From Candidatus Sumerlaeota bacterium (GTDB taxonomy: Bacteria > Sumerlaeota > Sumerlaeia > UBA8349): DNA of 64,000 bases. The DNA is taken from positions 3,664 through 67,663 of the forward strand of contig JAFGFN010000181.1 in NCBI GenBank assembly GCA_016931035.1. The letters run 5' to 3'. A program made the position numbers and the translations under genes. Shown here piece by piece: positions 2,267 through 3,413 of the stretch; the first letter of the stretch is position 1; every line of letters begins with the position of its first letter. The notes beneath the pieces were generated by a model that was given only the letters and a program-made list of their open reading frames with translations, ran no database searches and had not been told where the DNA came from.

Positions 2267-2749
2267 TCAAGAATCGTTCTCCCTTTCACGGTCTTCCTTG
2301 TCGAGTTCCGGGAGTTGCGTCTCTATAGTGCGACAGAGACCAAGCAACTCACTTATCGCCTGACGGTAGTGCTCAACGGAATTGAGGACCTGATCTTGGG
2401 TAGTCATATCTTTTTCGGTTCGAAGCATAGCGATTTCCTGGCTGACTCTATCGATCTTGTCTCGAATGCTCGAGTAGTATTCCGGGAAAACGGAGGAGAT
2501 AGCGGTGGAACTGAAGGGAGCCAAGAAACCAGCGATCCTCTTTCGGACGGCTACGGAAAGAAAATCGGCCGCGTCGAAGAAAGCCCTGTACTCGTGCGCC
2601 AGAATCATCTTCTCCTGTTTCTCGGCGTAGTCTTCCCCGAGCGTGTCGGTCAACCCCAGTTCGTACGCTCGAAGCCGAATCACGTGGTCGTAGGCGTGCC
2701 ACTGCTCTAGTGGGCTGAAGGAAGGTTCTAAACTCATCAAACTCCTCAC
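2267..2749 (-). CDS. hypothetical helical protein, 160 aa
   Basis: The ORF has non-repetitive, protein-like composition. Its stop lies 9 nt upstream of the hisF-like SD and start. Its 5' 300 nt overlap the 3' tail of the SEFIR ORF in another frame, so the start, or an upstream frameshift, is unresolved. Confidence 0.45.
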   Translation of the reverse strand: MRSLMSLEPSFSPLEQWHAYDHVIRLRAYELGLTDTLGEDYAEKQEKMILAHEYRAFFDAADFLSVAVRKRIAGFLAPFSSTAISSVFPEYYSSIRDKIDRVSQEIAMLRTEKDMTTQDQVLNSVEHYRQAISELLGLCRTIETQLPELDKEDRERENDS

Positions 2750-3413
2750 CCAACAGCATCAGTTCCTTTGCGCGGACGTGGACCTGAACAATCACGGTCC
2801 GGATGTCGGTAGATGGGGAAACAGCTCCCTCAATCGGCGCTGTGCGCTCCGGATCTACCGAGTCCCTTGTTGAATCTGGACGAGCGCCGTTTCTCCGCTT
2901 CTTGGCTTGCGGCTTGCGTGTGGGCCACGGTTTTCCCAACGGCCACGGTTCGACGCCAGAGCGGCCGAACAGGAAATCGAGGAGATCTTGAAATGGCCCC
3001 TCCGTGTTCACGGGGTAGAATGTGTGTCCGCGCGCAGGTTCGGGAATCCATTGCTCGTCGTCTCGGTCGAAGAGCATGGGAACAAACTTCACGGTTTTGC
3101 TTCGTGCCCTGTAGATCTCGTGCGTGATAATCGCGCCTTCCCAGTCCGCACCCATTCCTCTTTCCGGTACATCATGACCGCGAAAACAGTGGTAGTAAGT
3201 CTTCGTGCAGACGAGCAGGACGAAGTCCGCCAAATCGATCATGTTGAGCATCCAGCGATCCCAACCCTCCGGGGGAGTTCCCTTCACGTACCGGTCAAGC
3301 ATCACGTCGATGAGCTCTGTACGCAGGCGTTGTGACAAGGCTAGCACCCGTTCCTTGTGTTCCTTCGAATCGTGACTGTAGCTCACAAAGACTCTGGGAT
3401 GGCTGTCTGGCAT
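2448..3413 (-). CDS. SEFIR/TIR-like domain protein (N-terminal ~150 aa) with a low-complexity C-terminal extension
   Basis: N-terminus RVFVSYSHDSKEHKERVLALSQRLRTELIDVMLDRY...W...ADFVLLVCTKTYY...KFVPMLF matches the SEFIR/TIR_2 domain pattern. The C-terminal ~170 aa are Arg/Pro-rich and overlap ORF 2267..2749, so the true 3' boundary is doubtful. Confidence 0.55.
   Translation of the reverse strand: MPDSHPRVFVSYSHDSKEHKERVLALSQRLRTELIDVMLDRYVKGTPPEGWDRWMLNMIDLADFVLLVCTKTYYHCFRGHDVPERGMGADWEGAIITHEIYRARSKTVKFVPMLFDRDDEQWIPEPARGHTFYPVNTEGPFQDLLDFLFGRSGVEPWPLGKPWPTRKPQAKKRRNGARPDSTRDSVDPERTAPIEGAVSPSTDIRTVIVQVHVRAKELMLLGEEFDEFRTFLQPTRAVARLRPRDSASSVRTGVDRHARGRLRRETGEDDSGARVQGFLRRGRFSFRSRPKEDRWFLGSLQFHRYLLRFPGILLEHSRQDR

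Follow-up and report, generated by a model that had tools for sequence, protein, structure and literature searches.

What is encoded where a gene for a SEFIR/TIR-type domain runs out of frame, for some 300 nucleotides (nt), over a second open reading frame (ORF)? The question was raised by a first-pass annotation of positions 2267 to 3413 in a 64,000-nt stretch of Candidatus Sumerlaeota bacterium contig JAFGFN010000181.1 (the whole stretch analysed, hereafter the window), which offered two answers: a frameshift joining a TIR-like domain to a C-terminal domain, or a TIR protein accompanied by a small separate partner. Both ORFs lie on the minus strand. ORF A (3413..2448) encodes 321 amino acids (aa), and its product, P0001, is an exact match to NCBI MBN1868436.1, 'TIR domain-containing protein [Candidatus Sumerlaeota bacterium]'. 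ORF B (2749..2267) encodes 160 aa from a GTG start or 156 aa from an ATG at 2737. The overlap was confirmed and covers 302 nt (2448..2749), read in different frames. Based on sequence comparison, we estimate a probability of about 0.8 that ORF A and ORF B are parts of one gene, encoding a SEFIR domain (TIR superfamily), a linker and an all-helical domain of ~180 aa here called X, which would have been disrupted at 2711..2708. The features of the locus are as follows:

2267..3413, minus strand: putative whole ancestral SEFIR-linker-X gene, ~382 aa after restoring 2 nt
2886..3401, minus strand: SEFIR domain module, ORF A aa 5-176, including a conserved 'GVEPxxLG' extension
2811..2885, minus strand: basic and Pro-rich linker, about aa 177-201, coding and typical of the clade, in which the C-terminal domain that follows varies
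2712..2810, minus strand: first helix of X (TDIRTVIVQVHVRAKELMLLGEEFDEFRTFLQP), in the SEFIR frame, ORF A aa 202-234
2708..2711, minus strand: frameshift site ACTA, 4 nt where the family has two codons
2267..2707, minus strand: remainder of X, 146 aa and a TGA stop, ORF B residues 15-160
2448..2708, minus strand: out-of-frame tail of ORF A, aa 236-321 in 86 codons of which AGA (2708..2706) is the first, stop at 2450..2448
2708..2749, minus strand: out-of-frame head of ORF B, with GTG at 2749 and ATG at 2737

SEFIR and X homology along two reading frames

The N-terminal part of ORF A proved to be a SEFIR/TIR-type domain, as had been proposed. Pfam SEFIR (PF08357) matched aa 7-127 (4.6e-11, 43.7 bits against a cut-off of 23), with TIR_2 scoring lower at 34.3 bits, and the PADLOC model bSEFIR matched aa 5-176 (7.6e-41, 139 bits). 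The sequence of the Bacillus cereus SEFIR crystal structure (BcSEFIR, PDB 5Y8E/5Y8F, Yang et al. 2018) matched residues 6-125 at 4e-13, with the motifs FxSYS, LDR[WY] and E-x-x-IIT common to both; this likeness covers the SEFIR domain only, not the C-terminal part. Every invariant residue of the close SEFIR homologs is kept in ORF A, including D40 (LDRY) and E92 (DWEGA), and by these comparisons the domain looks intact.

Homologs of the second part were collected by an exhaustive HMMER (phmmer) search of 1.84 billion cluster representatives with ORF B as the query. This search returned 486 cluster representatives (50% identity) at E <= 1e-3, of which 227 had E <= 1e-10, with a best non-self match of 1.4e-33; a word-indexed search with ORF B retrieved nothing other than its own sequence, present in a Logan contig. 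The 160-aa ORF, which had been described as a well-formed helical protein, is thus a member of a large family (family X), for which an all-helical structure was predicted from another member (see below), but it is a fragment lacking the first helix rather than a gene of its own. X homologs start aligning at ORF B residue 14-15, opposite homolog residue ~40, so that ORF B is without the first helix of the family.

The missing helix was found in the frame of the SEFIR domain. In tblastn alignments of the closest X member, P0051, residues 27-54 (IVQIHQYTKELILLGEEREPDFKSFLQP) matched window positions 2792..2712 (IVQVHVRAKELMLLGEEFD-EFRTFLQP) in the SEFIR frame with 61% identity, while residues 45-204 matched frame B from 2707 onwards (EQWHAYDHVIR...) at 1e-48. 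The same two-frame pattern was obtained when P0123, P0128, P0130 and P0206 were aligned to the window by tblastn (SEFIR-frame matches being to residues 9-36 of P0128 and residues 149-202 of P0206, for instance), and the profile hidden Markov model of X matched ORF A (P0001) from aa 202. Among the 364 proteins that were collected, none but P0001 combines a SEFIR domain with X, and X was not present in any other SEFIR protein sampled. The two frames of X homology meet at 2712/2707, with no stop or start between them. With the first X helix lying in the SEFIR frame in this way, the alternative of a TIR protein with a small separate partner did not hold.

Between the Pro codon at 2714..2712 and the Glu codon at 2707..2705 stand 4 nt, ACTA. 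The spacing of the surrounding 'QPxxE' motif is constant, with two residues at this position in every family member aligned; because 4 nt stand where every homolog has two codons, a net deletion of 2 nt is indicated. The lesion at 2711..2708 falls inside the interval of 2700-2800 in which a frameshift had been predicted. It disrupts a Thr codon (2711..2709, ORF A aa 235), making aa 235-321, or 87 residues, out of frame. When two bases were restored, 3413..2267 became one ORF of 382 codons, the X part of which was colinear with 24 family members without any other gap and kept 11 of 11 invariant columns (K, E, H, H, R, D, D, R, K, D and Y). Since X homology runs through both frames with a net 2-nt gap, an ancestral single protein of ~382 aa, SEFIR-linker-X, is the reading that we favour, and the predicted frameshift joining a TIR-like domain to a C-terminal domain was in this sense correct.

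Base composition agreed with this assignment of frames. The G+C content at the three codon positions of the overlap is 0.56/0.38/0.73 in frame B, like the SEFIR domain (0.61/0.42/0.68), and 0.73/0.56/0.38 in the out-of-frame tail of ORF A, in which 21 of 86 residues (24%) are Arg. The fit of frame B to the SEFIR-domain pattern confirms, at the level of codon statistics, that the overlap is coding in frame B and that the ORF A tail is non-coding; no homologs covering this tail were found in the protein database search. An earlier statement that the frame degenerates after the domain therefore applies to residues 235-321, and not to residues 160-201, which belong to the linker of the clade, or 202-234, which form helix 1 of X. 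The overlap reflects a deletion of 2 nt and has no special coding meaning.

A genuine pair of overlapping genes, in which a 321-aa SEFIR protein and a 156-aa helical partner starting at ATG 2737 are both made and the split is tolerated or useful, is in our judgement very improbable. Such a pair could draw on a Shine-Dalgarno-like GAGGAG placed 4 nt upstream of ATG 2737, on the 146 homologous codons over which ORF B is intact, and on the gene caller of Logan, which called only the 156-aa fragment, the opposite of the 321-aa call made by NCBI. However, GAGGAG-TTTG-ATG is simply how the conserved EEFDE motif in helix 1 of X is encoded, and the 156-aa product would lack the very helix that bears the invariant K and E. 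The 87-aa tail of the longer protein, with its non-coding codon statistics and absence of homologs, also speaks against a pair, as does the fact that X is never split here elsewhere in the family and that its normal partner, a small protein Y described below, is absent from the window.

CCC-N quadruplets are prone to +1 slippage, and one of them lies exactly at the junction of the frames. Low-level production of full-length SEFIR-X by programmed or leaky +1 frameshifting was considered for this reason, with a tRNA-Pro moving from CCC onto CCA within CCC-ACU (2714..2709). We regard it as exceedingly improbable: no shift occurs here in any X-family or SEFIR homolog, slippage would leave a single residue at a place that holds two throughout the family, and a stimulatory element was not identified either, as GAGGAG is at least 20 nt upstream and the A-site codon is neither rare nor a stop. 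Compared with prfB-type +1 recoding, the site is without conservation, without a Shine-Dalgarno-like element at the right spacing and without an in-frame stop. Other X genes are uninterrupted ORFs at the lesion position, which argues that it is not a conserved recoding site.

Authenticity and age of the frameshift

A contig from Logan (L001, run SRR13394437) was 100% identical to window positions 1..6565 (6565 nt), lesion included. Agreement over 6.5 kb between assemblies made by independent software argues against a lesion introduced by sequencing or assembly, or confined to a minority allele, in an organism that in fact carries an intact 382-aa SEFIR-X gene. The lesion site (CCCACTAGAG) is neither a homopolymer nor a simple repeat, where indel errors concentrate, the neighbouring genes are intact, and no intact version exists among the called proteins of public assemblies. 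The source is nevertheless a metagenome-assembled genome, the agreeing assemblies possibly come from one read set, and ORF B is undecayed, with no stops and all invariant residues in place. Taking both sides together, we consider an artefact or minority allele quite unlikely.

The absence of internal stops in ORF B and the retention of every invariant residue have a second consequence: as the downstream frame is without decay, the lesion is probably recent.

Several points count against a real and recent break in an ancestral SEFIR-X gene. The window assembly and the Logan assembly may derive from the same reads, and an undecayed ORF B fits continued expression as well as recent loss. No intact SEFIR-X ortholog was found in a search of 5.8 billion proteins, so the ancestral single ORF is reconstructed from homologs of its domains, not observed.

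Three unrelated X genes outside the window were seen to be broken into two or three pieces by frameshifts or stops (L055:4911-5485, L065:4664-5444 and L066:4938-5485; the hosts are a Lachnospiraceae strain, a Planctomycetota metagenome-assembled genome and Blautia luti). The window is thus not alone in showing decay of X.

SEFIR relatives, family X and protein Y

About 150 database homologs of the ORF A SEFIR domain were found; among the matches listed, non-self identity was 63% or less (closest 45-63%). The SEFIR domain is N-terminal in 98 of 118 collected homologs, and the C-terminal domains that follow SEFIR plus linker include NB-ARC, AAA (PF14516), TPR, PNP_UDP, CHAT, GAF and EAD (PF19955). 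Some homologs stop after ~215-250 aa and others carry short EAD-like helices. A modular architecture is, by these comparisons, normal for the clade. The closest homologs (45-63% identity) include STAND/NTPase and EAD-type conflict effectors, which share the SEFIR-plus-linker module with the window protein; unlike them, the window protein carries X, which none of them has, and neither it nor its neighbours contain an NTPase or adaptor domain. No homology of X to the C-terminal half of the bSEFIR profile was detected, and other bSEFIR members also match the SEFIR part of that profile alone.

As a separate observation, the C-termini of P0003, P0004, P0010, P0011, P0019, P0030 and P0054 have a common helical motif of ~40 aa (IWQEKLDYLLxxEAxxADPAQKFxLKKxIEEcxxKIxxLG), and Pfam EAD-type domains (PF19955) are present in related proteins among the SEFIR matches. 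These sequences hint that adaptor helices are the usual means by which the SEFIR clade is brought into larger conflict systems.

X homologs are nearly all 175-240 aa long (a typical stand-alone X has ~215 aa), and the window X is 41-53% identical to its closest members. An AlphaFold2 model of P0051, built from a 67-sequence alignment, was a confident one and showed a six-helix, all-helical bundle (predicted local distance difference test score 92.2, predicted template modelling score 0.83). Foldseek comparison of this model with PDB and BFVD gave no significant hit, a search of the PDB sequences with a profile of X was empty, and in the Pfam, PADLOC, NCBIfam and PHROGs libraries there was no credible match to X or to the partner protein Y. 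X had no match in cultured phages and one in plasmids, to a protein annotated as hypothetical. Because 194 of 227 complete members end in a hydrophobic (transmembrane) helix, X would typically be a tail-anchored membrane protein. The window X and its nearest relatives are without this C-terminal helix; the window copy ends in an acidic stretch (...KEDRERENDS), as P0051 does.

Altogether 71 X loci were retrieved, the sources being genomes, metagenomes and six viral contigs of IMG/VR. In 61 of the 71 loci, X is directly preceded, at a distance of about 5-50 nt, by Y, a basic protein of ~65 aa with the consensus ...NWKDLIDVDFPKDxPITERTRETT..SRFRGSVRIATGRFWTDxEYEKRRERVLxTPLP. Examples of the Y-X cassette are:

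L004:4764-5663
L006:4708-5645
L008:4761-5804
L154:2972-3855
about 55 further loci (L009-L072)

The hosts belong to Planctomycetota, Verrucomicrobiota, Kiritimatiellia, Lentisphaerae, Nitrospirota, Syntrophales and Omnitrophota, together with many Lachnospiraceae (Blautia, Roseburia, Jutongia), and the cassette also occurs in the six IMG/VR contigs. The 100 immediate neighbours of Y-X at about 55 loci were heterogeneous and mostly housekeeping genes, with single cases of a restriction enzyme, a methylase, a UvrD-like helicase, an integrase, a resolvase and a transposase.

Measured against these cassettes, the X of the window is a clear member with all invariant residues, and differs in lacking the transmembrane helix and Y. 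No Y was found in the window, where the best tblastn match had an E value of 0.015 (20005-20193); we judged it to be due to chance, as it lies inside an unrelated 477-aa secreted-protein ORF. In the place of Y stands the SEFIR-linker module, fused in frame to X. P0051, the closest relative, was examined as a possible truncated SEFIR-X fusion and rejected, its near-identical sibling P0365 being part of an ordinary Y-X cassette.

The X gene closest to that of the window was observed in two 97%-identical copies (L002:1-327 and L154:2972-3240) with wholly different upstream parts: L154 has a normal Y gene, and the unrelated upstream sequence of L002 is open in the X frame to the edge of the contig. 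A comparison of the two suggests that Y may have been rearranged or replaced in the population behind them.

One other N-terminal fusion of X was found. P0206 (L073:1992-3047) consists of a ThsB-like TIR / nucleoside 2-deoxyribosyltransferase-like domain followed by X, and its neighbour (L073:3144-3926) is a trypsin-like protease that matches PADLOC RT-Protease_XI, a defence-associated protease model, at 1e-12. Judging from these sequences, X is joined to TIR-type domains more than once, to SEFIR here and to a ThsB-like TIR in P0206. We put forward, as a tentative possibility only, that X is a new sensor/effector module of conflict systems and Y-X a new two-gene system of the toxin-antitoxin-like or anti-phage kind. 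Under this proposal a SEFIR effector would have replaced Y in the (damaged) gene of the window, and X would therefore supply trigger sensing or membrane targeting.

Proposed function and locus setting

bSEFIR was described as a single-gene anti-phage system defending against phage phi29 (Millman et al. 2022, 10.1101/2022.05.11.491447; PADLOC PDLC03957), in which the N-terminal SEFIR domain depletes NAD+ (10.1101/2024.02.11.579819). Defence requires a residue of the SEFIR-SEFIR interface, and the protein of Bacillus sp. NIO-1130 no longer defends once D40A is introduced (10.1101/2022.05.11.491447; 10.1101/2024.02.11.579819). The window protein resembles this system in scoring higher for SEFIR than for TIR, in its 139 bits, which lie inside the 119-199 bits of other members, in the apparent presence of the conserved Asp and Glu positions, and in the design of a single polypeptide with a C-terminal non-SEFIR domain, which in the window is a reconstructed one. 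D40 (LDRY) is invariant among the homologs of ORF A and was aligned to LDRW of BcSEFIR; it may be the counterpart of the Asp in the NIO-1130 protein. Differences from bSEFIR are that the C-terminal domain is X, that the frameshift leaves the window gene short of a single intact polypeptide, and that bSEFIR is enriched in defence islands, outside of which the window gene lies.

By analogy with bSEFIR, X in the intact protein could act as a sensing, regulatory or localising domain, and the N-terminal SEFIR domain would oligomerise, hydrolyse NAD+ and abort phage infection. We give this mechanism of the intact protein roughly even odds. The 2-nt deletion would shift the frame in the loop or at the start of helix 2 of X, and the present allele would yield SEFIR, linker, X helix 1 and an Arg-rich nonsense tail of 87 residues, with the rest of X either not translated at all or made as a separate product that lacks the first helix. 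Again by analogy, the present allele is probably a recently inactivated pseudogene or a crippled defence gene.

The comparison with ThsB of the Thoeris system made by the first-pass annotation holds as a loose analogy only. A TIR-superfamily domain and NAD-based immunity are common to both, but PADLOC assigns the window protein to bSEFIR and not to ThsB, and no ThsA (SIR2/SLOG or Macro-TM) adjoins it. ThsB moreover produces the signal in a system of two genes; the published account of bSEFIR is that of a self-contained NADase (10.1101/2024.02.11.579819).

The immediate neighbours of the SEFIR-X gene are as follows:

3453..3965, minus strand: GNAT acetyltransferase, upstream neighbour, stop codon 39 nt before the SEFIR ATG
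1494..2255, minus strand: hisF, downstream neighbour, ATG at 2255 with a GGAGGG Shine-Dalgarno ahead, 11 nt past the X stop

The position directly upstream of hisF was thereby verified (Pfam His_biosynth 3.9e-70; TIGR00735 277.8 bits; the gene is also in the Logan gene call). Two ATP-grasp ligases and an asparagine-synthase-like gene complete the neighbourhood. G+C content of the SEFIR-X region is 55%, compared to 63.4% for the whole window and 64-67% for the flanking hisF and GNAT genes, and third-position G+C is 0.65-0.68 versus 0.75-0.86 in the neighbours. This foreign composition points to horizontal, mobile acquisition of the SEFIR-X gene. A scan of metagenome contigs of the Joint Genome Institute (JGI) with the hisF protein gave 80 related loci (76-84% identity), in none of which (0 of 80) was the GNAT / ATP-grasp neighbourhood present for an empty-site or synteny test. 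No direct or inverted repeats flanking the gene were found, and promoter-like and terminator-like sites at the locus were not above expectation.

Two aspects of genomic setting weigh against a role in immunity. A defence island was looked for around the SEFIR-X gene and none was found among the window neighbours, and the setting of Y-X cassettes among housekeeping genes, with sporadic defence neighbours, does not itself indicate immunity. Both favour a gene unrelated to phage defence, with SEFIR as a generic interaction domain and X as a membrane-associated housekeeping or stress module, as do the general interaction roles proposed for bacterial SEFIR by Yang et al. 2018 in the form in which 10.1101/2022.05.11.491447 cites them. 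We nonetheless hold this to be unlikely, given the strong score against the profile of a defence family with an experimental defence phenotype and NAD+ depletion (10.1101/2022.05.11.491447; 10.1101/2024.02.11.579819), the conflict-system partners of close homologs (NB-ARC/STAND, CHAT, PNP, EAD), a foreign G+C content pointing to mobile acquisition, and the separate fusion of X to a ThsB-like TIR beside a defence-type protease.

Two further observations concern other genes of the window. hisF (1494-2255, minus strand) has no adjoining hisH or hisA and stands back-to-back with the asparagine-synthase-like gene (115-1482, plus strand). A second long same-strand overlap occurs at 6058-9209 on the minus strand, where a 1039-aa ORF (6058..9177) overlies a 454-aa lysine-2,3-aminomutase-like ORF (7845..9209). 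The initial ~470 residues of the 1039-aa ORF are Arg-rich and have the appearance of an out-of-frame shadow; the real gene within 6058..9177, by eye GNAT plus deacetylase-like, probably starts near 7700.

For the host organism the immediate importance of the locus is small, because the immune gene is probably non-functional. As it stands, the public record MBN1868436.1 carries 87 out-of-frame residues and hides a second domain, X. SEFIR-X would represent a new and apparently unique C-terminal architecture among the modular bacterial SEFIR immune proteins, and X and Y together constitute a sizeable, widespread family absent from Pfam, NCBIfam, PADLOC and PHROGs. The fusion of X to two different TIR-type domains provides a testable hypothesis for the role of X, and if X is truly a new immune sensor/effector module, research on defence systems would have a moderate interest in it.

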